IMG/VR virus record: IMGVR_UViG_3300047457_000862
Location: 1 to 59,311 of that record
Strand: one strand, 5' to 3'
Length of the DNA: 59,311 bases
DNA from: a virus
Taxonomy: Duplodnaviria > Caudoviricetes
Made by a program: the position numbers and the translations under genes. The notes below the pieces were generated by a model. The model ran no database searches, had not been told where the DNA came from, and was given only the letters and a program-made list of their open reading frames with translations. Shown here piece by piece: positions 19,105 to 57,960 of this stretch (position 1 is its first letter; each line of letters begins with the position of its first letter).

Positions 19105-19860
19105 TCAGAGTTTCTGCACTTTCGCGAGAATCTTGCGCTTTCCCTGACGGAGAATGGCGTTCACCCGATGGTTCCCGTCCTTCAGAACATACACCCCATG
19201 GCCAAGGTGGCTCACCACCGGAGGCGGGAGGTTCTTTTTCCGGGCCATCTTGCTGACCTTGCCATTGTCGATTCCCCACTGCGGGCTCACGATGGAGCGG
19301 ATGCGGACCATGCGCTCCTTGCCCTCTCCGATGCGGTGAATGCCTGGCTTTACTCCCTTTCGGAAGATTGGGTTCTCGACTCGCTCGAACTGGATGGCGG
19401 GGAGGAGGGAGGAAAATACCGTGGCACCAGCCGCAAGCACCTGACTTGGCTGTCTGGTTCGATCCAACGCCCAGTCAAGATGGCCTGCATACCACTTTTC
19501 CGCTTGCTTCTTGTACGGCTCGACCATATCCGGCGACATCCTGCGGACAGCCGCTCGGTTGGCCATCCTCTCGCCCAATAACTTCCATCGGATGCGCTTG
19601 TCTCCTTGTGATTTCTGAAATCTCTCCACCGGGCGCTGTGCGGCGTGATGACCCGCCTCGTGATGTAGCGCGAATACAGGATGTTCGCGCCCTACCTCGA
19701 TCCCGCCGATAGGATTCTCGAATGTTCCTGGTCGATAGTAACCAGATGTAGCTTCCTTTGTCCGCGTGACTGGCAACCCCTGCCTTTTGAGGTCCCGGAG
19801 CAAACTTTTTGTGTTCCCGAGCCATCCAAACTGGATCAGATCAATGATTTGCCTGCTCAT
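19105..19860 (-). CDS. two-module protein: HEXXH metallopeptidase-like plus ParB/Srx-like domain
   Basis: LHHEAGHH; LPPPVV...VLKDGNHRV; modules preceded by IQFG and IQFE. Confidence 0.7.
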   Translation of the reverse strand: MSRQIIDLIQFGWLGNTKSLLRDLKRQGLPVTRTKEATSGYYRPGTFENPIGGIEVGREHPVFALHHEAGHHAAQRPVERFQKSQGDKRIRWKLLGERMANRAAVRRMSPDMVEPYKKQAEKWYAGHLDWALDRTRQPSQVLAAGATVFSSLLPAIQFERVENPIFRKGVKPGIHRIGEGKERMVRIRSIVSPQWGIDNGKVSKMARKKNLPPPVVSHLGHGVYVLKDGNHRVNAILRQGKRKILAKVQKL

Positions 19861-43024: not shown

Positions 43025-44317
43025 TTATCGGCATGTGAACATGCTGATTTTTCCAAGGAAGTCGAAAGGAACCACCGCACCGCGCGCGCCGTCGCGATTC
43101 TTGTCGATCGAGACGGAACGTGATCCGTCCTCGTTCTCGGTTACAGTCAGGATGATGTTCGCGAAGTTCTCCTTCGCCTGCGAGTAGCGAGCCTTCAACA
43201 CCCCGTCCTTGCTCTCCGTAACCTGCGACAGCAGAATCGTCGTGATCCCGAGTTCTCCAGCCACCTTCTTCCAGGACGCGGAGATTTCAGACAACCCCTC
43301 CTCCTTCGAAACCTTCGGAGGAAGCGTGAGGAGTTCGTCGTAATCCAACACGGCGAGCCCGAGGTCCCCCCTGCTGGCCCGGATCCGAGTGCGCTGGATC
43401 ACCGACTCGATCGTGGCTGGGCGCTCCTCGATGAATTCGATCTTCGAGTTCTTCACGCTTTCGGCCCCATGCTTGATTAGCCCGAGAGCACCCTTCTCGT
43501 GCAGGAGGTCGCCGCGGGACTTCATGTAGTCCTTGATGTTCGTCCTTCCGCGAAGCTGAATGAGCCGAGACACCTGCTGGCGCACGGTCATCTCGTAGGT
43601 GAAGTAGGCAGTGCCGAGCTTGTGAGCCCTGTCAAATGCCTCTGCGAGATTCAGAGCAAACGCGCTCTTTCCACTCCCGCGCGCTCCGCGGATTAGAATC
43701 ATGTCGCCCTTCTGGAATCCCCCAATCTGCTCATCGAGCGCACCAAATCCGGTGGGCATACCGAAGATGGCCTGCGAGTTCCCGGATTCGATGTCGCGGA
43801 TGATGTCGTCAACAGCAGCCTCAGTGGTGGTCTGGCGACTCCTTCCGGCAGCGCACATCCCAGCGGTTGCGGCAGCCACGGCAAGCTCGGAACAAATCTC
43901 CGCGGCAGTCTGAGCCCTGGATTCGATTCCGGCCAGGATGCCAAGACATGCCTCGCGGGCCGTGCGAACCACGTACATGTCCCTGACGATCTCCGCATAC
44001 TCGCGGACGTTGTGAGCGAACGCTACCGACGACATGATCCCGAAGATCATCGAGAAGTCGATGTGCGTGTGCCCCTTGCTGTGAAGGAACCGCAGAAACA
44101 CCACGGTATCGATCGCGTGCCCACTCAATGCTCCGCCAGAGATCACATACTCCCTCAGAGCGAGGTAGATGAATTTGTTCGTTGCGTTCTGGGAAAACCA
44201 TCCCTCGTCAGCGCCCATCTGTTCGACGACGATAAGGCACTCATGCGGGGCGTGCATGATCGATCCGAGCAAATGCTTCTCAGCTTCCTCGTTTGAATAT
44301 CGGATTGCGGAGCTCAC
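43025..44317 (-). CDS. dnaB: DnaB-like replicative helicase
   Basis: EAEKHLLG, PTGFGALD, GARGSGKS, TYEM, LDY, LLSQ, KNRDG. Confidence 0.9.
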   Translation of the reverse strand: MSSAIRYSNEEAEKHLLGSIMHAPHECLIVVEQMGADEGWFSQNATNKFIYLALREYVISGGALSGHAIDTVVFLRFLHSKGHTHIDFSMIFGIMSSVAFAHNVREYAEIVRDMYVVRTAREACLGILAGIESRAQTAAEICSELAVAAATAGMCAAGRSRQTTTEAAVDDIIRDIESGNSQAIFGMPTGFGALDEQIGGFQKGDMILIRGARGSGKSAFALNLAEAFDRAHKLGTAYFTYEMTVRQQVSRLIQLRGRTNIKDYMKSRGDLLHEKGALGLIKHGAESVKNSKIEFIEERPATIESVIQRTRIRASRGDLGLAVLDYDELLTLPPKVSKEEGLSEISASWKKVAGELGITTILLSQVTESKDGVLKARYSQAKENFANIILTVTENEDGSRSVSIDKNRDGARGAVVPFDFLGKISMFTCR

Positions 44318-45228
44318 TTGGCACCTCCCTGCTTCAGCAAACGGGCCTCCAGCTCACGCTGGTAAGCATCCCTCTTCTCTTTTTCCGACATCTGGCGCTC
44401 CGCAGCCATTTTCGCTGGCGACGCGACCACGGGGCTCGCAGGCGCGTTAAACCGTTCGAAGTTCATCTTCCAAGTCCGGGCCGCCGCCTTCCAGTCCTTC
44501 ATCTTCGTCCGACCAAGCATCCAACCGCGGGCCGCGTGGTGATTCACGAAAGCCTCGGCCTGCTGCTGCGACGCTCCGTTCAGACCAAGAGCCTTGAAGT
44601 AGCCTTCAGCCTCATCGAGCCTCGGTGGCGAGAACCGCCTCGGTGGCGCGTCCAGCAAAAGGGGGTCGGCGACACTGGGGGTTTTGTCACTGCATTTTGT
44701 TCCTACGGTTGATGTGGTTCTTCCATCAGTAGCCACTTCCCCTTCTTGTATTTTTTTCTTTTGTTCTCCAGAACTATTTGAAGAAGTCTTTGTACCTATA
44801 TAGGGAGTCTCTCGTTTTGATAGAATGGGTTGATCAATTTGATCATCACATGATTCTATCAATCTGATAGAATGGGTGCGCCTATCGATCCTTTCTTCAA
44901 GCACCTCGATAGCATCCCAGTCGATTCGATAATAGCACCTGCGGTTGAACTTCTCCGGCTGGCATGTGATGAGCAGTCCGCGCTCCTTCAATTCAGCCAT
45001 GACGCGGTTCAGTGTCGGGACGCTCAGAAACGGGAAATACTGAGCCTGCCATTCATCTATCGAATTAAAAACCCAAAGCTCACCATCGATGACGCGCCCT
45101 GTTCGTGGCTGCTGAAGGAGGTAGGCTATCTGCTGGAGCACGAGCGCCTCATTGACCCCGATTTCAACTGCGAGTTGAGGGAGAAGGAGGAGCGGGGTCT
45201 CCCCTCCGATTGTGCGAAAGCGGCTCAT
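44314..45228 (-). CDS. phage replication initiator protein
   Basis: N-terminal wHTH (LAVEIGVNEALVLQQI); C-terminal FSPP...GW...MKDWKAAARTW; upstream of helicase. Confidence 0.8.
   Translation of the reverse strand: MSRFRTIGGETPLLLLPQLAVEIGVNEALVLQQIAYLLQQPRTGRVIDGELWVFNSIDEWQAQYFPFLSVPTLNRVMAELKERGLLITCQPEKFNRRCYYRIDWDAIEVLEERIDRRTHSIRLIESCDDQIDQPILSKRETPYIGTKTSSNSSGEQKKKIQEGEVATDGRTTSTVGTKCSDKTPSVADPLLLDAPPRRFSPPRLDEAEGYFKALGLNGASQQQAEAFVNHHAARGWMLGRTKMKDWKAAARTWKMNFERFNAPASPVVASPAKMAAERQMSEKEKRDAYQRELEARLLKQGGAK
44818..44877. repeat. iteron-like repeats (candidate ori)
   Basis: TGATAGAATGGGT at 44818 and 44865; inverted ATTCTATCA at 44853; AT-rich flank inside the initiator gene. Confidence 0.55.
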
Positions 45229-45542: not shown

Positions 45543-45828
45543 TAAAACGGCCCATCAAGGAAATCGGTCGGAGAGAGAATTTCACAGGCGGCGTGTCTCC
45601 ACGCTCTTTGGGTTCTCCGCCCGACTTCCTAGATGGGCCAAAATGTTACTCGAATTGATGTTATCCCGTGCGGTTTCTCAGGCCGATCGATTGCTCGATG
45701 GGCGATGAATTGCAGAACAAAACTTTCACGTCAACGATTATTTTCGTTGCACTTCTTTCCGATAAATGATGAAAACAGCTCGCTCGACGACAAGTTCGCG
45801 AGCAGCTTACACTGACAAAAACAAAACA

Positions 45829-46548
45829 ATGACACTGATCAAAACATCCACCCCCGACAGCCAGATAACGCTGTCTGAATCAGCCGCGGAAGCGAAGAAA
45901 ACGCTCACCATGGCTTCGTCTGAAATCACCGAGGTAAAATCCCCGGAAGAGTCCACCGCGGCGAAAGCCGTGATCGCGAGAATCGACACCCACATGAAGG
46001 ACTTCGAGAAAGCGCGGGTCGCTGCAAAAGCGCCGTTCCTCGAAATCTGCCAGAAGCTCGACGCACTCAGCAGGGAGCATGTGGCATCGCTGGACTCGGA
46101 ACGGAAGCGGCTCAGCCGAATCGCAGCAGGGTTCGACGCCGAACAACTTCGAAAAGCGCAGGAGGAGGCGGCAGCGGCGCAGCGAAAGGCCGAGGAAGAA
46201 GAGCGCGAGCGGCGGAAGGCAATCGCTGAAGCTGAGAAAAAGCAGCGTGAGGCCGAGCAGTCCGGAGACGAGGCGGCAAAGCTGGAGGCGGAGATCCTCG
46301 CGGAAACCGCCAATGAGGCACCAGCGAAAGCCGTGGTCGTCGCCCCGATTCCAGAACATCTGGAGGGCATCCGGATGAAGACGGAGATCACCGTCACGGA
46401 CATCAAGGCGCTCTACGCTGCGCATCCGATGTTCGTGCGGCTTGAACCTGATCTGCGGATGATCCGCGCTGCGATCGACTCCGGGCAAACACTACCTGGG
46501 GTCAAGGTTGAGAGAGTTCCCGATGTCGCGAAGAGGAGGGGCGTATGA
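45829..46548 (+). CDS. coiled-coil recombination-associated protein (Gam/Gp157-like)
   Basis: Long helix, C-terminal LPGVKV; upstream of SSB and recombinase. Confidence 0.6.
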   Translation: MTLIKTSTPDSQITLSESAAEAKKTLTMASSEITEVKSPEESTAAKAVIARIDTHMKDFEKARVAAKAPFLEICQKLDALSREHVASLDSERKRLSRIAAGFDAEQLRKAQEEAAAAQRKAEEEERERRKAIAEAEKKQREAEQSGDEAAKLEAEILAETANEAPAKAVVVAPIPEHLEGIRMKTEITVTDIKALYAAHPMFVRLEPDLRMIRAAIDSGQTLPGVKVERVPDVAKRRGV

Positions 46549-46859
46549 GCGAAAAACGAGACAACAGCGGATCGTCGTTCCCGAACGACAGACGCCGCGA
46601 AGGGAAGAACGACCCGAACATCACAGGTTCCGTCATGATCGACGGGGAAGAATACTGGATGGACACGTGGGTCAAGAACCACCCCAAGCAGCCCAACCAC
46701 GACCCTTCGAAGAAGACCTGGTATTCGCACAGCTTCCGAAAGAAAGACTCACAGCGACAAGCTCGCCAACCACAACAACGCCGACAATCGGCACCACCTC
46801 CACCACCACCATCCGATAACGATGGAGGACTCCACCCGGACGAACAAACCTGGCAATAA
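46545..46859 (+). CDS. putative ssDNA-binding protein
   Basis: PNITGSVMIDGEEYW..W; Pro/acidic tail. Confidence 0.65.
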   Translation: MSEKRDNSGSSFPNDRRREGKNDPNITGSVMIDGEEYWMDTWVKNHPKQPNHDPSKKTWYSHSFRKKDSQRQARQPQQRRQSAPPPPPPSDNDGGLHPDEQTWQ

Positions 46860-46865
46860 CACACC

Positions 46866-47930
46866 ATGAACGAACAATACACACTCGAAACAATCGCAAC
46901 CATCAGCGAGAAACTTGCCCGAAGCGGCTTGATGGGAGGAAAAACGTCACCGGACGCGGTCTTTGGACTGATGCTCCTGTGCCAGAGCGAAGGCATGACG
47001 CCGATCTCTGCCATGAAGCGATACCACGTCATCGAGGGCAAGCCCTCTATGCGCGCAGACGCCATGCTTGCGGAGTTCCTCAACGACGGCGGCCGCGTCA
47101 TCTTTCACATCCGCGATGATGACATGGTGGGCGCTACGTTTATCTCGAAGACAGTGACGGTAGGGCAGGAGCACATCGACCGCGCCAACCAGCGGTTCCT
47201 TGCGGTGTGGAAGCTATGCTCAGCCCCGGCAGGGGAGCGCACGGGCCTCTACACGACCATTGCCAAGCTGTCGCACCCGGGCGAGGAAACCATCATCCGC
47301 ACATTCGCTGACTGCGACGCCAAGGGGCTTACGACGGGCAGCGACGGAAACCTGAAGAAGAACTGGGCGCAGTCACCGCGACAGATGCTCACCGCCCGCG
47401 TGATCACCGAGGGAATCCGACTGGTGGCACCACAGCTCGTCACCGGGGTCTATACGCCGGAGGAAATCAGCGATGAATCACCGCTTTCAGGGCTGGTGAA
47501 GAAGCAGACTGCCGAAGAGTTGCGGAAGGCCGCGCTCGACGAGACAGACCCCGAGAAGCGTCGTGAGCTGCTGGGTGCCGCTTCAGATATCGCGCACTCG
47601 GAGACGAAAGAGGCAGTGCTTGTGTTGGAGCAGGACGATATCCCGATGGGAGACGCGAAGCCCGCGAAGGCCAAGCAGATCAAACAGCAGGAAACCGAAC
47701 CCGCTCCGGACGTCGAGCCGCCGCTCCAGATCGGAGTTCCGTGGCAGGACTACGTGATCACCGAACTGAAGAACAAGCAGATGAACGGGCGAAAGCTCGG
47801 GACTCTGTCGAAGGCTGAGCTCGCAATGCTTCACCGCACGCGCTGCATGCCGTTCCTCAAGTCCGACAACGACAGGCTGCGCCTTGAGGCCGAGAAGATC
47901 CTTGAAGCATGTGAATCCTTCGCGCAATGA
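46866..47930 (+). CDS. RecT-like ssDNA annealing recombinase
   Basis: HVIEGKPSMRADAM, NWAQSPRQMLTAR, GVYTPEE. Confidence 0.75.
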   Translation: MNEQYTLETIATISEKLARSGLMGGKTSPDAVFGLMLLCQSEGMTPISAMKRYHVIEGKPSMRADAMLAEFLNDGGRVIFHIRDDDMVGATFISKTVTVGQEHIDRANQRFLAVWKLCSAPAGERTGLYTTIAKLSHPGEETIIRTFADCDAKGLTTGSDGNLKKNWAQSPRQMLTARVITEGIRLVAPQLVTGVYTPEEISDESPLSGLVKKQTAEELRKAALDETDPEKRRELLGAASDIAHSETKEAVLVLEQDDIPMGDAKPAKAKQIKQQETEPAPDVEPPLQIGVPWQDYVITELKNKQMNGRKLGTLSKAELAMLHRTRCMPFLKSDNDRLRLEAEKILEACESFAQ

Positions 47931-48576: not shown

Positions 48577-48820
48577 CCAAGCTGCTTCCCGGAGATCGCG
48601 TTTCGTTCATCCAGAACGGACGCAGACTGCGCGGCGTGATCGCCGATGCTTTGCAGATAAAAGTGCGCGGCGAGGAGCTGGAGCTACCCGTGGTTCGGCC
48701 ATCGCGAAGATCTGCTTCTCGCCCGCTCATGGAGCAGCAAAGGCCGCCGAAGCTGCGCTGGATCAAGCGGTCCCTGCTCAGGAAATTGCCAGTCAAGAAG
48801 GAGGGCGGAAAGGAGCAACA

Positions 48821-49144
48821 ATGACAGAGAAAACTGCAACGCCCGACGAATTGGGAGCAGCGCCTTTTTCGCCAGTTTCGTGTCCGCTCTGCGACGGAGG
48901 CGGGCAAATCACAAATCCCGAGCATCCCGACCACCCAAAGAACACACACGACGGCCACGACGAAACGTGGTGCCTCGGCTGCGATGGCAGCGGTCTGCTT
49001 GAAGTAAAGCGAGGCGTAGTCATGCAGGGCAGATACGAGGGCGAAAGGCTCTCGCGGCTGAAAAGGTGGCGCGCGCAGGATGGTCCGCCGAACGACAAAC
49101 ACAGCGAACCCGCCGAGGGAACGCGCAACCAACACGAAAAATGA
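48821..49144 (+). CDS. DnaJ-type Zn-finger cassette protein
   Basis: CPLCDGGG...CLGCDGSG. Confidence 0.6.
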   Translation: MTEKTATPDELGAAPFSPVSCPLCDGGGQITNPEHPDHPKNTHDGHDETWCLGCDGSGLLEVKRGVVMQGRYEGERLSRLKRWRAQDGPPNDKHSEPAEGTRNQHEK

Positions 49145-49208
49145 CTGATACTAACCAACCCCAAAAGAAACCAGAAACGGCGGGTTCGCCTGCTGTGATG
49201 GGTTCTGA
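49087..49208 (-). repeat. attC site
   Basis: On +: GCCGAAC...CACAGCGAACCCGCCG / CGGCGGGTTCGCcTGcTG...GTTCTGA. Confidence 0.75.
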
Positions 49209-49611
49209 TTCCCTAGCCGAAAAGCTCTTTGCTGCCGACGGACTGGATATGGAGCTATTCGACACGGTAAACATGATACTTGGGTGCGACACGGGAAAAT
49301 GCACTGACACAGGATTTTTGTGGGGTGCGACCGATACAACTTGGGATCATTACGACTGCTCGGTTGAAATCATTCGTCCTATTCACAGCGAATGGATGTC
49401 GCGCGAGCAGGCAGATCAAATCCTTGCGTTAGGCTTCGCTCAGATATTTGAAACTGTTGGCGATAAAGCGCGGCAAATCACAAGGAAAGGAATAGGCACC
49501 TGTTCGCCGCGTGAGGCAGGGGAGGTCAGAAGGCTCAAGGCGGAAATAAACGCACTCAGGAATCAGAACGCAGAAGTCAGCGACCCGACGGAGGAGGGTT
49601 CGCTGCACTGA
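49141..49611 (+). CDS. cassette ORF, hypothetical
   Basis: Starts inside one attC loop and ends inside the next attC. Confidence 0.65.
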   Translation: MTDTNQPQKKPETAGSPAVMGSDSLAEKLFAADGLDMELFDTVNMILGCDTGKCTDTGFLWGATDTTWDHYDCSVEIIRPIHSEWMSREQADQILALGFAQIFETVGDKARQITRKGIGTCSPREAGEVRRLKAEINALRNQNAEVSDPTEEGSLH

Positions 49612-49621
49612 CTGGTTCGGC
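49563..49621 (-). repeat. attC site (59 bp)
   Basis: Minus strand: GCCGAAC-CAGTC-AGTGCAGC-GAACCC..GGGTC-GCTGACT-TCTGC-GTTCTGA. Confidence 0.9.
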
Positions 49622-49631
49622 ACATTCACCG

Positions 49632-49979
49632 ATGAAAACGAAAGACCAACTCAAACCAAACTTCGGGCCAGCCTACGCCGCCGCTATGTATCCCGGCCTC
49701 GCGGCAATTTTCCACTGCCACGGCTACGCGCTCGCGTGCCACGGAAGCCTCGCCCGCGACTTCGACCTGATAGCTGTGCCGTGGGCTGAAACTGTGTCAG
49801 ACCATGCGACGGTGCTGAAAGACGTGACGACGGAATACGCGCTGCGACTCACGGACGATGGCGAAATGAAAAACCACGGGCGAAAAGCCTACACGCTCTC
49901 ATGCGGATTTGGTGAGTGCGCGATAGACCTGAGCTTTGTGTCGAACGACCCAAGCTCAGCGACGCGGGAGACAATATGA
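49632..49979 (+). CDS. cassette ORF, nucleotidyltransferase-like
   Basis: GYALACHGSLARDFDLIAVPW (GS..D.D motif). Confidence 0.7.
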   Translation: MKTKDQLKPNFGPAYAAAMYPGLAAIFHCHGYALACHGSLARDFDLIAVPWAETVSDHATVLKDVTTEYALRLTDDGEMKNHGRKAYTLSCGFGECAIDLSFVSNDPSSATRETI

Positions 49980-50165
49980 CGAACGAACGGAAACCAAAGC
50001 AGCCTGCGGTCCTTGGCGGGCCGTGTGAATGCGGCGATGGATATGCCGCGTGCAATATGGTGCTCGCCTACGAATGCACCCAGTGCGGTAGGCGGGAGGC
50101 TGCGGATGAATCGGCTAAAGCGCCGGACGAACAGGAGGCGCGTTCGCTGCAGCGCGTGGTTAGTC
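49940..50165 (-). repeat. attC site with long loop (226 bp)
   Basis: GTCGAAC..GCTCAGCGACGCG / CGCGtTCGCTGcAGC..GTTAGTC. Confidence 0.75.
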
Positions 50166-50464
50166 GCCTTGAGTGGACTTTCGAAGCAGAGTCGCGGCGG
50201 TGGCTGGGGCGGCTTCGTGGACATCCCGACCGCACGCTGTTCATCCTCAATCTCGTGGAGGGCCGCGACGACCGCTGCCACCTTCTTGGCGGGGTGATGT
50301 CCGACAGCGAGGATAGGCAACACACCCGCGCACTCGTGACTTGGGCGAAAATGGCGGCGGAGTGGTATCTCGACGACTTCGAAGCACTGCTGAAGGCGAC
50401 TAACAATCAAGCTCACCTACCCGCTCCGGCGGAGACGGTGGAGCGCAAGAAAGACAATCTATGA
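49976..50464 (+). CDS. cassette ORF, hypothetical
   Basis: Starts inside an attC loop. Confidence 0.6.
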   Translation: MTNERKPKQPAVLGGPCECGDGYAACNMVLAYECTQCGRREAADESAKAPDEQEARSLQRVVSRLEWTFEAESRRWLGRLRGHPDRTLFILNLVEGRDDRCHLLGGVMSDSEDRQHTRALVTWAKMAAEWYLDDFEALLKATNNQAHLPAPAETVERKKDNL

Positions 50465-50523
50465 ACACAGACACATCGAACGCAGAACAGCAGGAGCGGG
50501 TTAGGTGCAGCGCATGGTTAGAT
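50398..50523 (-). repeat. attC site
   Basis: GACTAAC..GCTCACCTACCCGCTCC / GGAGCGGGtTAGGTGcAGC..GTTAGAT. Confidence 0.88.
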
Positions 50524-50706
50524 GCCTGTAAGCGGCGCTACGAAGCAGCAATCAAAGCGCACTCGAAAGCACAAACAGCGGACGAGGAAAATAGACTGTT
50601 TGACGAAGTGGTGGCTGCAACCGACGAATACAGAACCGCGTCGGCATCTAACGCTGAACGCAGCGGCGTAACGTCCGCTGCCGTGACTGGTTCGCCACCT
50701 TTATGA
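50461..50706 (+). CDS. cassette ORF, hypothetical
   Basis: 81 aa; both termini are encoded by attC DNA. Confidence 0.55.
   Translation: MNTDTSNAEQQERVRCSAWLDACKRRYEAAIKAHSKAQTADEENRLFDEVVAATDEYRTASASNAERSGVTSAAVTGSPPL
50646..50696 (-). repeat. attC site (51 bp)
   Basis: ATCTAAC..CGCAGCGGCG / CGtCCGCTGcCG..GTTCGCC. Confidence 0.8.
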
Positions 50707-51065
50707 ACTCACTCGAAGTAATCAATGCCGAGAAACGCGCCTACGAGAAAGCGTGGAGATTGAAGAACATCGAAAGGTGTCGGCAATACTCGCGTGACAA
50801 TTACGCGAAGAATAAGGAACGCCGCCGCGAATATCGGTCCAAGTGGAGCAAAGCCAATCGCGCAAAGAAGAACGCCATAAACAAGCGGTGGCGCGAACGG
50901 CACCCGGATGTCGTGAAGGAATGCAATCGCCGCGAAATCGAGAACCTATCGGCAGCGTATGTAGCCAAGAAGATGCGCCTGCGTGTTAGCGAGTGCCCGC
51001 CCGAACTCATTCAACTGAAACGAACCCATATCCAACTGCAAAGAGAATTACGAAAAACCAAATGA
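50703..51065 (+). CDS. basic helical protein (cassette)
   Basis: R/K/Y/W repeats; PPELIQLKR. Confidence 0.65.
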   Translation: MNSLEVINAEKRAYEKAWRLKNIERCRQYSRDNYAKNKERRREYRSKWSKANRAKKNAINKRWRERHPDVVKECNRREIENLSAAYVAKKMRLRVSECPPELIQLKRTHIQLQRELRKTK

Positions 51066-51268
51066 CCACACCAACGAACATGCAAGAACTCCGCGCCGTG
51101 CTCTGCGAAACCATCGCCGCCGTTCGCGCAAAAGAAATCACACCCGACGCGGCGGAGGCCGTGAGTAATGCGAGCGGCAAAATAGTCGCGAGTTTCCGTG
51201 TGGAACTCGAATACCGCAGGATGCGAGGCGAAGTGCCTACACTCGGCTTCATGGAGGGCGGGAAATGA
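51062..51268 (+). CDS. small hypothetical protein (cassette)
   Basis: AEAVSNASGKIV; coupled to previous ORF. Confidence 0.6.
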   Translation: MTTPTNMQELRAVLCETIAAVRAKEITPDAAEAVSNASGKIVASFRVELEYRRMRGEVPTLGFMEGGK

Positions 51269-51672
51269 ACTGCGACGACGACCACCACGCGGCTATGGGT
51301 TCCATCGCGGAATCCAGCGCCGCGCAGGAGCAGGCTGTTAAACTCGCAAACCAAATCGACAAAGCACTCGCGCTAGTGAACGAAGAATGCCCAGCAATGG
51401 ATCATTTCACAAACATCGTTCCAACCGTAGAATGGCTGATTCAGAAATGGCGCGAATGTCGGAGGCTTTGGTCTAAATCATGCCAATACCGGGACAAATT
51501 ACGCGAGGAAAATCAACGTCTCCGCGACCACTTTTCTGGCCTGATTTACAGCGCAGAACGCGCAGCCGATTTGATTATTTCCGTGAGCGACCGATACGAC
51601 ATTGATGTTGCGATAGAGTCGGCAAAGGCGGTGCTGGCGAACGATGAGATCAGCCGGGAGGCGGGAGAATAA
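51265..51672 (+). CDS. hypothetical protein (cassette)
   Basis: Ends within an attC arm. Confidence 0.55.
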   Translation: MNCDDDHHAAMGSIAESSAAQEQAVKLANQIDKALALVNEECPAMDHFTNIVPTVEWLIQKWRECRRLWSKSCQYRDKLREENQRLRDHFSGLIYSAERAADLIISVSDRYDIDVAIESAKAVLANDEISREAGE

Positions 51673-51731
51673 TTTATGAAAAACACACAAGGCTCGCAGC
51701 CCGCCTCATCGGCTGCATCGACGGGTTCGGC
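51636..51731 (-). repeat. attC site
   Basis: GGCGAAC..GATCAGCCGGGAGGCGGG / CCCGCCTCATCGGCTGcATC..GTTCGGC. Confidence 0.85.
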
Positions 51732-52110
51732 ACTTACATTCGATGCGTTTCGTGCAGCGAACGTAGCACGCTGCCTCAAATGGCATCCCAAAGGAATCGA
51801 ATCGTGGTCGTCGTCAGACTGGCTCACCGCCGTCGCTGGCGAACTCGGAGAACTGGCATCACTGCTGAAAATGCGCAACCGAGAACGCGACGGGCTGCCC
51901 GGAAATAAGTTCAGCCCGACAGACAAACAAATCGCCGATGAAGTAGCCGACGTAGCGACCTACCTCGACCTGCTGGCATACGTGCTCGGCGTGGACATGG
52001 GCCGCGCGGTTGCGGAGAAATTCAATGCTGTCAGCGAGCGCGTGGGATTCCCCGACCGCCTCGAGGTGCCGAACGCAGAATCCACCGACGCGAAGCGTTC
52101 GGTGCGATGA
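51676..52110 (+). CDS. MazG-like nucleotide pyrophosphohydrolase (cassette)
   Basis: GELGEL...DEVADV..YL...KFN. Confidence 0.85.
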   Translation: MKNTQGSQPASSAASTGSALTFDAFRAANVARCLKWHPKGIESWSSSDWLTAVAGELGELASLLKMRNRERDGLPGNKFSPTDKQIADEVADVATYLDLLAYVLGVDMGRAVAEKFNAVSERVGFPDRLEVPNAESTDAKRSVR

Positions 52111-52120
52111 TTTGTTCGAC
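52068..52120 (-). repeat. attC site (53 bp)
   Basis: GCCGAAC..ATCCACCGACGC / GCGtTCGGTGcGAT..GTTCGAC. Confidence 0.88.
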
Positions 52121-52130
52121 ATTTACGACT

Positions 52131-52757
52131 ATGCAAACACAAGAAGCACTCGAAACACTTGACGCCATGCAGCGTCAAGTCATTCACGGCTCGACAGTCT
52201 TCAGGGACATCGGCGACGTGATACGGAATCTCACGCTTTCATGGACCGAAAAACCGCCAGACCAAGAGGGATGGTATTGGATTCGTTTCGCTGGGGTAGA
52301 AGCGCGACTGGTCAGTGTGGCTCATAATGGGACCACTTTGGAATACTACATATCAGGAATGGGTAAATTTAACCTATTCTACCCGCCCTCGCATTTCGTT
52401 GAGTTCGCCGGACCTGTGCGCGAACCGTCGAACAATAAAATGAACGAACCAGAACCAACTCCACCAACAGACAGCGGGCGCTTGCCTGACGCTACTTGTT
52501 CGCCTGCGGACGTTTTGCGGATACGCTGCATTCACCACATTAACGTGCCGCAACAAAACACGGCAGAGCACACTGGCGCGGAATGTGGTGGATGTATTGC
52601 CGCCGAACGGGACGCACTCAGATCCAAACTGGAGCAAGTGAGGAGACTGGCTGAGCATCTTGGATTCTGCCAACAGGTCTCCCAGAGGGAGATTGCCGAT
52701 GCGCTGACAAGCATACTGAATCAGGCGAACAAGGATTCTGCAACCGATTCACTCTAA
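52131..52757 (+). CDS. hypothetical protein, fusion of two cassette ORFs
   Basis: WTEKPPDQEGWYW module plus CIHH/ECGGC module joined across a decayed attC; second in-frame ATG at 52440. Confidence 0.55.
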   Translation: MQTQEALETLDAMQRQVIHGSTVFRDIGDVIRNLTLSWTEKPPDQEGWYWIRFAGVEARLVSVAHNGTTLEYYISGMGKFNLFYPPSHFVEFAGPVREPSNNKMNEPEPTPPTDSGRLPDATCSPADVLRIRCIHHINVPQQNTAEHTGAECGGCIAAERDALRSKLEQVRRLAEHLGFCQQVSQREIADALTSILNQANKDSATDSL

Positions 52758-52780
52758 CCGTTCGTCTAATCAAAATCCGA
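52724..52780 (-). other. attI-like recombination site candidate
   Basis: G|TTCGCC core without attC hairpin; two further GTT cores at 14-bp spacing. Confidence 0.5.
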
Positions 52781-52781
52781 C

Positions 52782-54632
52782 CTACCCCTGCACGTTCGCC
52801 GCGCTGGTCTCCCCGGGCATCGAAAGCAACCCGAGCTGGAGCGCCCTGATCGCAACGTGGCTCTCGCAGTCCGAGAGATGGTTCTCCTGATGAAGCTCAA
52901 CCCATGTCCACTCTACCTTGCCAGTGCGCTTATTCTTCTGCTGGCGCTTCACGCGTGAGTTCAAGTGGCGCTGGTAGCGGTCGCTCACGTTGATTGAAGC
53001 GTGCCAGATAACGGGGTCCGCGTAGCGCAGGCTCGACACGAGATCGAGGGCTCCGTTCTTCGAGAACTTCACGAATCGCACGCGCTGGACAGTGCGGTTC
53101 TCCCATGCGGTTCCGAGGAGCGGATCGCGGAACTGGACCTGTGAGTAAATCCTGGTGGTTCTCGTTCCATTCGGCCCTGGGTGGTAGAACTCCTTCGTGT
53201 TTGATCCCCAGATGCCGCGCCATCCGTAGCTGAGTATGATTCGGCCGACAGCGTTCGGTCGGTTCGCCATATCCACGGTGACGTTCTCGTCCGCAACTCC
53301 GTATTCGATCTGGACCTTCTTGATGTCGTCCTCGGTGTCCACGCGCTCCGCAAACACCAGCCAGCTCTCGCCGTGCGGCTTCTGTGGCGTCGGGCGGGCG
53401 AACTTCCGCACCAGCACCCAGTAGTGCCCCTCCTGCGCGTCCACGGCCATAAGCGGGACGGAGTCCTCCGGGGTCGATGTAATCTCCTCCAGCGGGATTT
53501 CCTTGTGATCGTAGCCGCGTGACTCGTCCCACGGTTCCGCAAGCCACGAGTTGATGAAGTTCTGCATGTCGCGCAGCAGCCCCTTGGATGTGAGATACTG
53601 AACTGCCACGGCCGACAGCGACGTCTGCTGCGACAGGATCGAGTATAGCGAGCTGAGTTGATACCCGAACCAGCCCGGGGCGCACTGCGAGTTTGTCGGG
53701 GTCCATATCCCCTCGCTGAGCATTGCCTGCCTCTCGATGTCCTGAATCTCTCCTCCGCACTCCTGACAGCGATAGAAGGCGTTCCTCGCCACTTTCTCCA
53801 TGTCCCACGCCCCATCGGTCTTCGATTCCTCCTCAGACTCTCTCCACCACCGCACCCCGCAATCGCCGTGCTCCTCCGACTTCGTTGTGAACATCAACCG
53901 GATGCGCCGTTCGCACCGCGGGCATGGGAGCATGTAGTATCGCTGGTCTGTCTTCAGGAACTCGGTCCAGATCATCCGGTTCGCCAGCGTCGGCGTGGAC
54001 GATTTCACCACCAGCGGGAACGGGTAGGTCTTCGTGCGCTCCTCCGCCAGTTTGATCGCCGCTGCCTCGAACTTCGACTCGTCGCCATACTTGTCCGTCT
54101 CGTCCATCCACAGCAGCCCTACGGGTCGGCTGGAAAGGTTCGCCGGAGAGTTGGAGCCTACAAAGTTGAGCACCATCGACGAGAAGTGCTGCTCCATGAA
54201 TCCGAAGAGATGCTTGTCGAACTCGCCGGATGCCGATCGAGGGACCATCGCCGCTGCCTGGGCGCACGCCCTGACGAACTTCTGCCACCGCGACTTCGAG
54301 AATGACTTCGCGAGCTCGCCATTCGGAAGCACCCACATGGCGTCCTGCGGATCCCGGGCCAGCCGATAGAGCATCCCGAGCTGCATGACCGAGGTTTTCC
54401 CGCTCTGCGTTCCGAACACCAGGACGAGGTGCTTTGAGTCCTTCTGCCCGATCCGCTCCAGCGGCTCCCTCAGATACGGAGTGAGCGTCATCGATGCCCG
54501 CCCCTGCACGGCACCAGTAGGGATGTCGCAGTTCGCCTCCACCCAGCTCACCACACTCTCGGTGGTCGGAGGCCTCAGTGCGTCCCTGAACCGCTGTTGC
54601 AGCTCCCTCAGTGCTTCAAGTCGATTACTCAT
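52782..54632 (-). CDS. terminase large subunit, GpA family
   Basis: TPYLREP, GTQSGKT, WMDETD, SSTPT, CPRC/CQEC, ENHLSDC. Confidence 0.92.
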   Translation of the reverse strand: MSNRLEALRELQQRFRDALRPPTTESVVSWVEANCDIPTGAVQGRASMTLTPYLREPLERIGQKDSKHLVLVFGTQSGKTSVMQLGMLYRLARDPQDAMWVLPNGELAKSFSKSRWQKFVRACAQAAAMVPRSASGEFDKHLFGFMEQHFSSMVLNFVGSNSPANLSSRPVGLLWMDETDKYGDESKFEAAAIKLAEERTKTYPFPLVVKSSTPTLANRMIWTEFLKTDQRYYMLPCPRCERRIRLMFTTKSEEHGDCGVRWWRESEEESKTDGAWDMEKVARNAFYRCQECGGEIQDIERQAMLSEGIWTPTNSQCAPGWFGYQLSSLYSILSQQTSLSAVAVQYLTSKGLLRDMQNFINSWLAEPWDESRGYDHKEIPLEEITSTPEDSVPLMAVDAQEGHYWVLVRKFARPTPQKPHGESWLVFAERVDTEDDIKKVQIEYGVADENVTVDMANRPNAVGRIILSYGWRGIWGSNTKEFYHPGPNGTRTTRIYSQVQFRDPLLGTAWENRTVQRVRFVKFSKNGALDLVSSLRYADPVIWHASINVSDRYQRHLNSRVKRQQKNKRTGKVEWTWVELHQENHLSDCESHVAIRALQLGLLSMPGETSAANVQG

Positions 54633-55248
54633 ACATTTTCTGCGCCTCCGTGATAATTTCCGTCGCTGCCGCCTCAAGCACATCGAACGCCCTGCGCGGG
54701 TCGGCTGGGTTACAGAGCGTGCATTTCGCCTGCGGGAGACGCTTCAGCCTGCCAATCATCAGATCCCACCCCTTCCTGAACATCTCCGTTGCTTCAGCCA
54801 GCGGGACAAGCACCCTGCGCTGCGCCTGCTCCTCGCGGTACGCCTTTTCCGCCGCGAACCGGGCCTCGATAGCCTTCGTGTGGATCGAGAGCGCTGGCGC
54901 GACCGCAGCGGGCTTTCCGGACGCCATGGCATCATCGAGCATCTTTTTCGCCTGAATCTGTGCCATGATCGCCGACTTCAGTGCCCCCTCCAGCGACATA
55001 TCCGCCGCGCTCGACGCATCCTTCCTCGGTCTGCCCCTTTTCCTCTTGGGTGGCTCGATCGACGCCACAACCTCCTCCATTTGCTCTGCCGCCCGCTTCC
55101 CTCCGGCCGACTTTCTCGACCTGGCATTCGCCTCCCGCCACTCCGTAGCGGCTTCTTCTGAGTCCAACGGCATCCCCTTCGTCGTGAGCTTCCTCACATA
55201 CTCCCGGGAGACGCCCCATCTGCGGGCAAGTTCAGCTTGGCGTATCAT
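54625..55248 (-). CDS. terminase small subunit (Nu1-like)
   Basis: N-terminal wHTH QAELARRWGVSREYV..GMP; LVP motif; overlaps terL. Confidence 0.8.
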   Translation of the reverse strand: MIRQAELARRWGVSREYVRKLTTKGMPLDSEEAATEWREANARSRKSAGGKRAAEQMEEVVASIEPPKRKRGRPRKDASSAADMSLEGALKSAIMAQIQAKKMLDDAMASGKPAAVAPALSIHTKAIEARFAAEKAYREEQAQRRVLVPLAEATEMFRKGWDLMIGRLKRLPQAKCTLCNPADPRRAFDVLEAAATEIITEAQKMYE

Positions 55249-56177: not shown

Positions 56178-56789
56178 ATGAATAACGAACTCGAATTCAC
56201 TGAATTCCCAAAGATAGCGCGACTCTCTCGCGACTGCATCATTACTGAGAAGCTGGATGGCACAAATGCCCAGATCTGCATCACCGAGGACGGCGTAATG
56301 TACGTCGGATCTCGCTCCAGATGGATCACCCCGGAAGATGACAATTACGGATTTGCAAGCTGGGCTCGCGACAACAAGGAAGAGTTATTGAAGCTCGGGC
56401 CAGGCCGCCACTTCGGCGAGTGGTGGGGGCAGGGCATCCAGCGCAAATATGGGATGACAGAAAAGCGCTGGAGCCTATTCAACGTCGCTCGCTGGTGCCT
56501 TCACGGTACCGAGCCGCAGCGCATCATCACAGAAGACCCACGTATTGAGAAATACCAAGAAGTGCTTCCTTCCTGCTGTCATCTCGTTCCGTTGATGTAT
56601 CGAGGCCCATTTGTCACATCGACTATCGAATGGCATCTCGACCTTTTGCGCAAGAATGGAAGCCTTGCATCACCTGGCTTCATGCGGCCAGAGGGCATCG
56701 TGTGCTACCACATCGCTGCTGGGGTTGCGTTCAAGAAAACGGTCGAGAATGACGCGTCCAGGAAAGGTTTTTCGAAAACGATCATCTAA
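56178..56789 (+). CDS. RNA ligase (Rnl2-like adenylation domain)
   Basis: FPKI, TEKLDGTN, GSR, FGEW, EGIV, FK. Confidence 0.85.
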   Translation: MNNELEFTEFPKIARLSRDCIITEKLDGTNAQICITEDGVMYVGSRSRWITPEDDNYGFASWARDNKEELLKLGPGRHFGEWWGQGIQRKYGMTEKRWSLFNVARWCLHGTEPQRIITEDPRIEKYQEVLPSCCHLVPLMYRGPFVTSTIEWHLDLLRKNGSLASPGFMRPEGIVCYHIAAGVAFKKTVENDASRKGFSKTII

Positions 56790-57036
56790 TCACTCGCAAT
56801 GAAAAACATAGAATCAATCCGGCATCTCAAGAATGCCGCGCAAACACTCAGAACGCTCCGCCCGAATTTCCTCAAGGAGATCGCGGAGCCTCGGTGCGAC
56901 AAGCCCGCAACGCCATCGACGCAGCCATGAAAGGAGCCGAATGAGCGACGATCAAATAGAATTCATCGGGCAAGTCGCGATCCTCATCGTGGCAATAATT
57001 TGCATCACGGCACTCATCATCAAATTCGGTTAATTT

Positions 57037-57960
57037 ATGGGAAAAGACTCAGCAATCAGCTGGACGCACCACACGTTTAATACGTGGTGGGGATGCGAGA
57101 AAGTATCACCGGCCTGCGCTCACTGCTACGCCGAAACGTGGTCGAAGCGCACGGGGCTTGATTCGCTATGGAAGGGTGAGCGTCGATTCTTCAGCGACAA
57201 GCATTGGAACGACCCGATTCGCTGGAACAAGGCGGCGGAACTGGCGGGGGAGCGTCGGCGGGTGTTTTGCGCGAGCATGGCGGATGTGTTTGAGGACAGG
57301 GAGGAGTTGATTCCGCATCGGGCGCGGTTATTCGACCTCATCCGCCGCACTCCAAACCTCGACTGGCTGCTGCTCACGAAAAGGCCGGAGAACATCGGCA
57401 TTCACATGAAACAAGTCTGGCATCAAGCGGATGATACAGGAATGTCGGAATTGAGGACGTTCGTGAAGGAATGGCTGCAAGGCACCGCGCCCGCAAACGT
57501 GTGGATTGGGACTACGGTGGAAAATCAGGAAATGGCGGAGAAGCGGATTCCTTCGCTACTCAAAGTTCCGGCTGCTGTGCATTTCCTAAGCTGCGAGCCG
57601 TTGCTTGGGCCGGTTGATATTTCTTTGTTTTTGGATGACTGCAACGGAATCCCTCGCACGCCTTGGGTGATTTGCGGCGGGGAATCCGGCGCACACGCAC
57701 GCCCAATGAACCCCGATTGGGCGCGAACACTCCGGGACCAATGCGCCGCCGCTGGCGTGCCGTTTCATTTCAAGCAGCATGGGGAATGGTGCCCCGGTGC
57801 ATTCGGGACAAACATTCCCGATTGTTTAACGCCGGAACAGCGCGCCGATAAACGGTTTTACCATTACTTTGATCCACCCGGAGGTAAAACTTGGCGCGTC
57901 GGCACCAAGCGCGCCGGACGGCTGCTCGATGGTGTGCTCCATGATGAATTCCCTCGATAG
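57037..57960 (+). CDS. phage Gp37/Gp68 (DUF5131) radical-SAM-like protein
   Basis: ISWTHHTFN.W.GC.KVSPACAHCYA, LLTKRP, SCEPLL, GGESG, FHFKQ. Confidence 0.92.
   Translation: MGKDSAISWTHHTFNTWWGCEKVSPACAHCYAETWSKRTGLDSLWKGERRFFSDKHWNDPIRWNKAAELAGERRRVFCASMADVFEDREELIPHRARLFDLIRRTPNLDWLLLTKRPENIGIHMKQVWHQADDTGMSELRTFVKEWLQGTAPANVWIGTTVENQEMAEKRIPSLLKVPAAVHFLSCEPLLGPVDISLFLDDCNGIPRTPWVICGGESGAHARPMNPDWARTLRDQCAAAGVPFHFKQHGEWCPGAFGTNIPDCLTPEQRADKRFYHYFDPPGGKTWRVGTKRAGRLLDGVLHDEFPR

Follow-up and report, generated by a model that had tools for sequence, protein, structure and literature searches.

Integrons are known as bacterial gene-capture devices; to our knowledge, the case for them in phages is based chiefly on a single survey of cultured phage genomes. 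A CALIN, as IntegronFinder defines it, is a group of at least two neighbouring attC sites that has no integrase close by. In the hyperplastic regions of T4-type phages, the PeSL (promoter-stem-loop) cassettes consist of small accessory genes that are flanked by repeated stem-loops. These stem-loops are thought to mediate shuffling, which is a likeness to the array described here; we know of no AAC/GTT core, attC geometry or dedicated tyrosine recombinase in PeSLs.

Clusters of attC sites in phages are already in print. The survey results of Qi, Rajabal, Ghaly, Tetu and Gillings 2023 (PMC9892861) give 17 CALINs among 10,705 NCBI phage genomes, and IntI1 recombined five of the six phage attC sites tested there. 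The parts of that paper used here describe co-directional cassettes as typical of bacterial arrays and do not mention a reversed layout. Our array shares with these CALINs, as presented there, the attC array in a phage and the lack of an integron integrase nearby. It differs from them in keeping an attI-like end, in its seven to eight homologous sites, in belonging to a family of uncultured phages that has an IntI clade of its own, and in having its genes on the bottom strand, read through the crossover.

Overall organization of the array

The array occupies positions 49087-52770 of the window (the whole stretch of DNA that was analysed, 59,311 nt), which stems from an uncultured freshwater phage; CheckV estimates the completeness of the phage record as 81%. 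It is located in a phage operon, with recombination genes on one side (exonuclease, SSB and RecT at 45766-47930, directly upstream) and the terminase on the other. This segment is very likely an integron-type array of eight cassettes with seven folded attC sites, one decayed junction and an attI-like end, in a phage without an integrase. Its features are as follows.

49087-49208, + (bottom) strand: attC site F; cassette c1 is 49093-49568
49563-49621, + strand: attC site A, 59 nt, perfect geometry match; cassette c2 is 49569-49945
49940-50165, + strand: attC site E, 226 nt with a long loop, perfect geometry match; cassette c3 is 49946-50403
50398-50523, + strand: attC site G, match in fold and geometry; cassette c4 is 50404-50651
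50646-50696, + strand: attC site B, 51 nt, geometry match; cassette c5 is 50652-51641, with three ORFs
51636-51731, + strand: attC site C, geometry match; cassette c6 is 51642-52073, with the MazG-like ORF 51676-52110
52068-52120, + strand: attC site D, 53 nt, geometry match; cassette c7a is 52074-52432
52427-52504, + strand: junction d, with AAC and GTT boxes but no stem, within the 216-aa ORF 52107-52757
52724-52770, + strand: terminal site T, attI-like, an AAC box and then some 40 nt of constant sequence
48821-49144, 49141-49611, 49632-49979, 49976-50464 and 50461-50706, + strand: ORFs 1-5 of the ORF list
50703-51065, 51062-51268, 51265-51672, 51676-52110 and 52107-52757, + strand: ORFs 6-10 of the ORF list

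An earlier note on this DNA had read the region as a phage-borne integron-type array. This reading is now largely supported by an attC model, by variation at the cores and by intI and attI in relatives, and all seven hairpins that it had claimed were recovered in sequence and folds, at the positions it had given.

Structure of the attC sites

Read along the + strand, a site begins with a 7-nt AAC box, a 5-nt spacer, 3 bp and 6 bp, followed by stem and loop; the second half consists of an unpaired T, 6 bp, an unpaired C, 3 bp, a 5-nt spacer and a 7-nt GTT box. All seven are imperfect hairpins closed by inverted boxes with the AAC and GTT triplets. The two spacers measure 5/5 nt in sites A, B, C and D, 5/6 in G, 5/7 in E and, judged by eye, 5/5 in F. 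In five of the seven, positions 16 and 23 of the bottom strand are occupied by an unpaired base and a T, respectively, separated by 6 bp. The unpaired C and T that the earlier note had seen on the + strand in five sites are indeed there (sites starting at 49563, 49940, 50398, 50646 and 52068), and it was also correct in taking the + strand as the bottom strand of an attC architecture and in measuring one site as exactly 59 bp (49563-49621).

According to the description of attC structure in Nivina 2016 (PMC5027507), the extrahelical bases stand at positions 16 and 23/24, 6 bp apart, the spacers have 5-6 nt and the crossover takes place in the AAC of the bottom-strand R'. The one geometry that six of the phage hairpins share equals this published bottom-strand layout and that of real class 1 attC sites, and the aadA1 attC of R100 has the same layout. 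Shared with class 1 cassettes (R100 In2, pNY8709-IMP, pFDL-VIM) are the 7-nt box, the 5-nt spacer, the 3 bp, the unpaired base, the 6 bp and the second unpaired base, as well as the AAC/GTT cores and a site that is split at the cassette edge; the class 1 sites differ in that they vary widely in sequence. Position 16 of the bottom strand is a C in the phage sites, the usual base being G, and a C is also found there in the real attC sites of blaIMP-1, dfrA14 and blaVIM-1.

The sites are 51, 53, 59, 96, 122, 126 and 226 nt long, so that four of the seven fall inside the range of 57-141 given in the same description (Nivina 2016, PMC5027507). The extended consensus RYYYAAC/GTTRRRY is, by our reading, strictly matched by only one of nine AAC boxes (ATCTAAC), most of them reading xxxGAAC. 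This misfit weakens the attC assignment little, because only the triplet is conserved among all attC sites in that account.

A geometry filter (AAC, spacer of 4-7 nt, 3 bp, 1-nt bulge, 6 bp, mirror arm, spacer, GTT) was run over both strands of the whole window with zero mismatches allowed. It returned six matches, all on the minus strand and all between 49567 and 52116, compared with a mean of 0.15 and a maximum of two in 40 dinucleotide shuffles. In a positive control with four class 1 arrays, this filter recovered five of the roughly nine real attC sites present, each of them on the top strand. Across an alignment of 26 family sites, two of the three AAC/GTT pairs are present in 26/26 and the third in 25/26; changes on both sides were observed at all 12 stem pairs, with 98.7% of cells paired.

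Six hairpins gave fold z-scores of -2.0 to -3.6 on both strands with DNA parameters. The 176-nt loop of the 226-nt site (49940-50165) leaves it without an overall z signal, yet its arms (49940-49966 and 50133-50165) pair in the family pattern. Site F (z = -3.0) has the same boxes as the family but a 4-nt bulge variant. The loops also contain coding sequence, namely the start codon of ORF 49141-49611 in site F, the start and 53 codons of ORF 49976-50464 in site E and the start codon at 50461 in site G.

Two junctions were absent from the earlier note, the hairpin-less boundary at 52427-52504 and the terminal attI-like site at 52724-52770. Junction d shows no fold signal (z = -0.6) and is probably a decayed attC that has fused two cassette genes, c7a and c7b (52433-52729). 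No hairpin is formed at site T.

Two covariance models were used, one of them (R2) home-made from seven real class 1 attC sites and the other (R1) built from phage sites; their E-values are rough owing to a short calibration. On the window, R2 matched five of the seven hairpins in the predicted orientation (minus strand, E between 6e-7 and 5e-3) and nothing else at E<1. Site D was the best match (E = 6.1e-7), followed by C (0.00069), B (0.0033), A (0.0046) and G (0.0052); sites E and F were not detected by R2. R1 found site F with E = 0.018 and site C, which was not among the sites used to build it, with E = 1.3e-5; site E was found by neither model. In a specificity control on 208 kb of other loci, R2 recovered its own seven training sites and nothing else, and it also detects arrays beside IntI genes in bacterial MAG loci outside the training set.

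Box pairing between neighbouring sites

If circular cassettes recombine with a fixed AA|C crossover, the GTT box of one site should pair with the AAC box of the next. This was the case for seven of eight neighbours with perfect complementarity and for the eighth via a G-T pair (permutation test, P ~2e-4), and none of the eight GTT boxes is a perfect partner of its own AAC box. Sites F and A are one example, the GTT box of F being fully complementary to the AAC box of A. The rule extends across junction d, whose AAC box is a perfect partner for the GTT box of site D. The GTT box of junction d is in turn fully complementary to the AAC box of site T, the two lying in a 12-nt perfect inverted repeat. 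The rule is visible by eye in the sequence of a near-identical contig (L001), and IntI-bearing loci follow it as well, the step onto attI included.

Cassette differences at the cores

Near-identical contigs and four metagenome runs differ from the window by whole cassettes at AAC/GTT, which bears out the earlier suggestion that variation would be bounded at the cores. The flanks of L001 are 99.7-100% identical to ours; 49946-52729 is missing, with the joint inside CGAAC, and three other cassettes replace c1. The left edge of this replacement cannot be placed at an AAC, the two versions having identical arms and diverging from the loop onward. In a second contig (L007), a third sequence is joined at the same terminal AAC, which is thus found with three different upstream cassettes in the window, L001 and L007. 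In the IntI-bearing viral contig L018, a copy of cassette c2 (93% nucleotide identity) ends at AAC and adjoins attI and intI.

In the four runs, which come from four studies, contigs break or join at 49089/49566, 49944, 50402-50404, 50650-50652 and 52726-52728. One contig of run X3 skips exactly 476 nt from 49089 to 49566, which is c1. Contig pieces in three of the four runs (X5, X8 and X11) fit exactly 49944-50404 and have unlike sequence on both sides, and pieces that cover 50402-50652 and then continue into attI-like sequence were present in 4/4 runs. Since Logan contigs break at any repeat, the ends of such pieces show shared cassettes and not an enzyme.

Integron integrases in related viruses

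As the earlier note had stated, there is no tyrosine recombinase in the window: searches in six frames with PF00589, TIGR02249 and IntI proteins gave no match. As its seven sites lie within 3.1 kb and the 59 kb contain no integrase, the array is a CALIN. It retains the attI-like site of a complete integron and lacks the intI beside it; relatives have both. Site T has its homologue in the attI of related viruses, in 27 loci that have an integron integrase at this place, and can be aligned with the sequence immediately before intI in these loci as far as the TAAT that precedes the start codon. Where the relatives have intI, the window continues after site T with the 3' end of TerL.

The recombinase of L018 gives a full-length match to TIGR02249 (integron integrase), with 256.9 bits and E = 2.8e-76, compared with 185.6 bits for the next family, the relatives' IntI lying 8 bits under NCBI's cut-off. 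It is 37% identical to IntI1, and the alignment spans a stretch that we take to be the IntI-specific insert. Among the 27 viral loci with an integrase of this clade, 19 have attC matches upstream of intI. R2 matches in the IntI-bearing viral loci lie on the strand opposite to intI in 27/27 cases, as in R100. Judged by these homologies, the array very likely belongs to an integron family on uncultured phages, in which relatives have intI after the same attI.

The closest bacterial IntI proteins (56-61% identity) come mostly from Verrucomicrobiota MAGs. The sedentary chromosomal integrons beside them share with the viral family the intI-attI-attC polarity, a homogeneous family-specific set of attC sites (R1 also matches the sites of the loci L079, L131, L103 and L081) and a cassette size of a few hundred bases. 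In contrast to them, the window has no intI, and its array lies inside a phage operon between recombination genes and terminase.

Gene layout and expression

The array region has ten co-directional ORFs on the + (bottom) strand (48821-52757). In all seven cassettes the gene lies on the bottom strand, not on the canonical top strand, and each attC therefore precedes its gene. When only the longest open frame of each cassette is compared, it falls on the bottom strand in 7/7 cassettes of the window and on the top strand in 13/13 cassettes of the bacterial array L079. Class 1 cassettes likewise have their genes on the top strand, with the stop before or at attC, and a promoter on the integrase side drives their expression.

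At 9/9 junctions the crossover AAC is in frame with the long upstream ORF. The ORFs that cross a junction run on for another 9-20 codons and end within the next site or shortly after it, with the exception of junction d, which is read through inside ORF 52107-52757. Five of the seven hairpin sites contain a stop/start overlap of the form ATGA. Because this overlap is so frequent, expression of the cassettes probably relies on read-through transcription and translational coupling. Genes antisense to the polarity of the sites, together with an in-frame crossover codon, are a layout that is not described for integrons, and we did not find the reversed layout in print. The antisense polarity, the in-frame reading through the crossover and the retained attI are also absent from the earlier note.

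The names given to the cargo in that note are weakly founded. The MazG-like ORF reaches 20.2 bits against a cut-off of 27, and the "nucleotidyltransferase-like" label is backed by no family match. ORF 49632-49979 matches phrog_35913 (E = 2e-31).

Origin and activity of the array

We tentatively propose, as a reading that is plausible if somewhat short of probable, that these phages run their own version of the integron. In it the cassette would be reversed, attC coming first with the start codon; AAC would serve as an in-frame Asn codon, attC or attI would supply the tail and the stop, and members without integrase would be reshuffled by integrases of the host or of co-infecting phages. Since our phage carries no integrase, its enzyme would have to act in trans. 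It could be provided by a chromosomal integron of the host, the closest bacterial IntI being found in Verrucomicrobiota MAGs, by a co-infecting IntI-bearing phage, or by the fifth of the genome that lies outside the sequence. The hairpins are on the sense strand, and being transcribed may in addition help them to fold for recombination. We infer that the array still recombines in this phage today; for recombination of its sites by an integron integrase, the AAC joints of natural variants give indirect support.

It is conceivable, if unlikely, that the array is instead a fossil in which true attC sites from an IntI-bearing ancestor are now inert, the variants having arisen by homologous exchange or before intI was lost. 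Such a history would fit the absence of intI from the window, the stemless junction d with its two fused genes and the arms of site F, which are identical in both c1 variants as homologous exchange would allow. However, the cassette content differs three ways despite flanks of 99.7-100% identity, and the changes must therefore be recent. The joints moreover share only 3-5 nt, too little for homologous exchange, and the sites keep a perfect geometry and paired boxes.

Far less probable is a recombination at the hairpins in which IntI has no part, carried out by the phage exonuclease, SSB and RecT or by template switching at stalled hairpins. Convergence would then have to account for the resemblance to attC, which extends to where the unpaired bases lie and to matches with a model trained on real attC sites. 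The genes for these three proteins do lie directly upstream, and the joints show a short microhomology (CGAAC); against this, relatives have an integron integrase beside a homologous attI in canonical orientation, and the boxes pair across cassettes as a fixed AA|C crossover on circular cassettes predicts.

A role of the hairpins in the operon transcript alone, as RNA processing sites, terminators or translational couplers and not in DNA recombination, is already contradicted as a sole explanation and has next to no probability left, since their place on the sense strand at gene junctions, their stop/start overlaps at five of seven sites and RNA folds as good as the DNA folds are set against no Rfam match, no terminator excess and no T tracts, and since the neighbour box pairing, the AAC-cut differences in gene content and the relatives' integrase would be left unexplained. 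An additional RNA role of the hairpins is likely.

Implications for phage gene exchange

The window and its relatives point to a dedicated lineage of phage integrons in freshwater communities, with an integrase clade of its own, and to cassettes that are common to unrelated phage backbones. If the reversed-cassette reading is true, a cassette inserted anywhere would be translated by coupling to its upstream neighbour, without a promoter or ribosome-binding site of its own. Such frame-locked coupling would explain the expression of cassettes without promoters in a virus. Recombination sites placed inside coding sequence, so far an engineering result (Nivina 2020, PMC7439510), would then also have a natural example. 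The family would provide a concrete route for gene traffic between phages and the chromosomal integrons of their hosts. Integron-type swappable cassettes without an integrase of their own, with genes reversed through the hairpins, may thus be one way in which phages trade genes.

Location of the array in the phage genome

The linear record of 59,311 bases is 81% complete according to CheckV and derives from a tailed phage. Its relevant features are listed below by position, together with the sites and cassettes discussed in this section.

19857–21638, lambda-type portal
43025–45228, DnaB and helicase loader
45766–47930, + strand, block of exonuclease, SSB and RecT genes
49087–49208, site F
49093–49568, cassette c1
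49563–49621, site A
49569–49945, cassette c2
49940–50165, site E
49946–50403, cassette c3
50398–50523, site G
50404–50651, cassette c4
50646–50696, site B
51636–51731, site C
52068–52120, site D
52427–52504, junction d, a boundary with no hairpin
52724–52770, site T, attI-like array end
52782–55248, minus strand, small and large terminase

The cassette array forms the tail of the + strand operon that carries the exonuclease, SSB and RecT genes, and it extends to where the convergent terminase gene ends. Amid large structural genes on the minus strand, at 13538–14281, is a gene for an HNH endonuclease (PF13392, E = 1.2e-8). The stretch just past the terminase genes, 56178–57960, encodes a DUF5131 protein (E = 5e-83) as well as an RNA ligase (PF09414); a DUF5131 relative is also present on L072, one of the IntI-bearing loci. 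At the gathering threshold, Rfam gave no match in the whole window, and no tRNA genes were found there. A promoter and terminator scan stayed at chance level (3 versus 2.5 and 13 versus 11.3), with nothing at the + strand sites.

Hairpins with attC architecture

The earlier note had described seven hairpins in the array, and sequence and folds placed all seven at the coordinates listed here. On the minus strand, the first arm of six of them consists of a 7-nt box with a terminal AAC, a 5-nt spacer, 3 bp, an unpaired G, 6 bp and an unpaired A; after the stem and loop follow the mirror arm, a spacer of 5–7 nt and a 7-nt box opening with GTT. Site F has the same boxes and stems as the other six, but its bulge measures 4 nt. 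A zero-mismatch filter for this geometry returned six matches on both strands of the whole window, all of them array sites on the minus strand, while 40 dinucleotide shuffles gave a mean of 0.15 matches and a maximum of 2. The + strand folded better than the minus strand in only four of six sites, by about 0.6 kcal/mol on average, a difference too weak to be of use. Scanning viral contigs with an IUPAC pattern of the conserved 3' arm produced a single match, a near-identical contig. A CxxC-rich ORF starts in the 176-nt loop of site E, which holds 53 of its codons. Joints in metagenome contigs skip 169–176 nt of this loop (the intervening letters are ambiguous), so that a short-loop form of site E may exist.

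According to Nivina et al. 2016 (PMC5027507), the recombinogenic bottom strand of attC has an R' box of RYYYAAC with crossover between A and C, an R'' box of GTTRRRY, unpaired spacers of 5–6 nt, and extrahelical bases at position 16 (usually G) and at 23/24 (T) with a 6-bp stem between them; lengths range from 57 to 141 bp. Counted from the GTT box on the + strand, the phage sites have 7 + 5 + 3 nt before the unpaired base at position 16, and a 6-bp stretch then leads to an unpaired T at position 23. This is the published bottom-strand layout, with C at position 16. On its top strand, the aadA1 attC of R100 is laid out identically, and in the blaIMP-1, dfrA14 and blaVIM-1 sites the first unpaired position is G on the top and hence C on the bottom strand. 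Applied to four class 1 arrays, the geometry filter recovered 5 of about 9 real attC sites; every match was on the top strand, and the bottom strand gave none.

Two covariance models were used, and their short calibration makes all E-values given for them rough. The first (R1), built from phage sites A, B and D, found site C (E = 1.3e-5), the variant site F (E = 0.018) and nothing else in the window, as well as a new site in a related contig (E = 0.005). An eighth hairpin candidate at 48610–48700 was ruled out (R1 E = 6.6, fold z = -0.1). The second model (R2) was trained exclusively on seven real class 1 sites. Searched unfiltered against the window, it agreed with the attC identity put forward in the earlier note for five of the seven hairpins, all on the minus strand: D (E = 6.1e-7), C (6.9e-4), B (3.3e-3), A (4.6e-3) and G (5.2e-3). 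The next-best match had E = 4.3, and sites E and F were missed. On 208 kb of other loci R2 returned only its seven training sites, and it detected arrays adjoining IntI genes in bacterial loci outside the training set. Distant TerL relatives with 27–45% identity (L002–L005 and L009–L011) contained no attC matches and therefore give no synteny information.

Box pairing between neighbouring sites

In integrons, the crossover splits the attC site, so that the final six bases of the box at one edge of a cassette are part of the site at the opposite edge. The array carries this signature. Seven of the eight GTT boxes are exact reverse complements of the next downstream AAC box (F-A, E-G, G-B, B-C, C-D, D-d and d-T), and the step from A to E is complementary via one G-T pair. 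None of the eight GTT boxes is perfectly paired with its own AAC box. When boxes were permuted, at least seven perfect matches arose in 41 of 200,000 trials. In L001, a close variant of the phage, visual inspection of the new cassettes shows the same rule, which also holds in integrase-carrying relatives, including the final step onto attI. Among 26 aligned family sites, both-side changes occurred in 12 of 12 stem pairs and 98.7% of cells were paired, figures biased towards structure because the alignment was fitted to the model. In agreement with the split-site rule, pairing within a site is poor at the outer box-helix positions.

The pairing analysis also exposed boundary d, where the boxes (52427–52433 and 52498–52504) persist without a stem. 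They lie within a 216-aa ORF (52107–52757), in which an in-frame ATG at 52440 occupies the position expected for the start of a second gene. This ORF looks like two cassette genes that were fused through decay of the intervening attC.

Integrase and attI in related phages

As the earlier note had stated, there is no tyrosine recombinase in the window; intI is absent from these 59,311 bases of an 81% complete record. A different viral contig, L018, has a copy of c2 with 93% nucleotide identity; the attC stem of this copy shows compensatory changes, and the copy ends at an AAC. About 30 nt of site sequence lie between this AAC of L018 and a gene for a 318-aa tyrosine recombinase that comes next. 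The protein matches the integron integrase family TIGR02249 from end to end (E = 2.8e-76, 256.9 bits against a cut-off of 265), with the next family at 185.6 bits. Its full-length alignment with IntI1, at 37% identity, includes the stretch of the IntI-specific insert.

Integrases of this clade occur in 27 viral loci (57–100% identity), and several of these loci have, in addition, genes distantly related to the terminase or portal gene of the window. attC matches lie upstream of intI in 19 of the 27, and in several others intI sits at the edge of the locus. All 27 R2 matches are on the strand opposite intI, a polarity as in R100. The 40–50 nt preceding intI are conserved among the IntI-bearing viral loci, and site T aligns with this stretch up to the TAAT before the intI start codon, beyond which the window sequence is that of the terminase gene's 3' end. 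The phage thus has cassettes and attI without intI.

The closest bacterial IntI proteins (56–61% identity) come mostly from Verrucomicrobiota MAGs, and the arrays beside their genes are also matched by R1. These sequence relationships suggest a host range rather than a specific host. In one Acidobacteriota MAG (L094, 9746–15454), attC matches lie downstream of the IntI gene on the same strand, the reverse of all other loci.

Natural variants and cassette sharing

The earlier note had proposed that related phages be compared for content changes at the GTT junctions, and such changes were found, with joints at AAC, in L001, L007 and L018. L001 is an 8.9-kb IMG/VR contig whose flanks are 99.7–100% identical to the window. 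It lacks 49946–52729, with the joint inside a CGAAC common to site E and the terminal site, and replaces c1 by 1.1 kb containing two further sites and three other ORFs. On its right side, this replacement is joined at the AAC of site A; its left edge is not placeable, because both versions share identical arms and diverge from the loop onward. In L007, a metagenome contig with the same terminase, yet another sequence is joined at the same terminal AAC.

Sharing at the DNA level with the fetched loci was limited to c2. In 31 scanned loci with c2 homologues (L018–L048), c2 was a cassette only in L018, and L019 had one nearby attC match. Twenty public runs from 17 studies, mostly freshwater, contained from about one fifth to nearly all of the sampled array words; two of these runs may be the source sample. 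Contigs from four runs (four studies) were aligned to the array region. One skips from 49089 to 49566, 476 nt with five ambiguous letters, which is exactly c1. Contig pieces fit exactly 49944–50404 (c3, in three of the four runs) and 50402–50652 (c4, in all four) and then continue into unlike sequence, which beyond 50652 is attI-like. The c3 and c4 contigs, 2–5 kb long, had a depth of 20–55 versus 2–11 for the phage backbone; the two cassettes, being deeper and in other contigs, are therefore commoner in the community than this phage. Since Logan contigs break at any repeat, the pieces show cassette sharing and its limits, not the mechanism of movement.

With regard to present activity, the most serious alternative is a fossil array. 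Flanks that are nearly identical around three different sets of cassettes point to recent change. Recombination by the phage RecT module or by template switching would be consistent with the short microhomology at the joints; it does not fit the detailed attC match and the canonical intI-attI-attC order in relatives. A role of the hairpins in RNA only fails, as it accounts neither for the neighbour box pairing nor for the variants or the integrase in relatives, and has neither an Rfam match nor a terminator signal in its favour.

Cassette cargo and reversed reading frames

Qi et al. 2023 (PMC9892861) report 17 CALINs (attC clusters without integrase) and three complete integrons among 10,705 NCBI phage genomes, so that the window as a phage CALIN is not new. 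For a phage IntI clade with reversed, read-through cassettes, we found no published description in the open literature searched.

The gene names in the earlier note proved weak: the MazG-like ORF falls below the Pfam cut-off, and cargo functions are otherwise almost wholly without assignment. Relaxing the Pfam search to E up to 1 gave no further firm assignment, and PADLOC defence families had no match among 13 cargo proteins. For the c2 product there are homologues in phages (phrog_35913, E = 2e-31). The MazG ORF of L001 lies just above the Pfam cut-off. Two different MazG-type genes are carried as cassettes by variants of one phage (L001 2947–3330, minus strand; window 51676–52110), and the one in L001 occupies the array position of an unrelated gene in the window.

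The cassette genes are on the + strand, that is the bottom strand, and each attC therefore precedes its gene. The longest open frame was on the bottom strand in seven of seven window cassettes versus none of 13 in the bacterial array L079. Of the seven start codons, the loop contains four and the 3' arm one, and the other two come immediately after the site. In the frame of the long upstream ORF, AAC encodes Asn at all nine window junctions and at 26 of 31 sites of relatives. The frame stops 9–20 codons past AAC at eight of the nine junctions, the ninth being the read-through at junction d; in a set of 38 sites it ends within the site in 36. At 15 of the 38, including five of the window's seven, the stop codon forms an ATGA overlap with the start codon of an ORF that is 40 codons or longer. 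From this arrangement of frames we infer that translation may be coupled across the junctions. Since the downstream cassette brings along the tail, the stop and the next start, every in-frame fusion at AAC would terminate properly and could pass the ribosome on.
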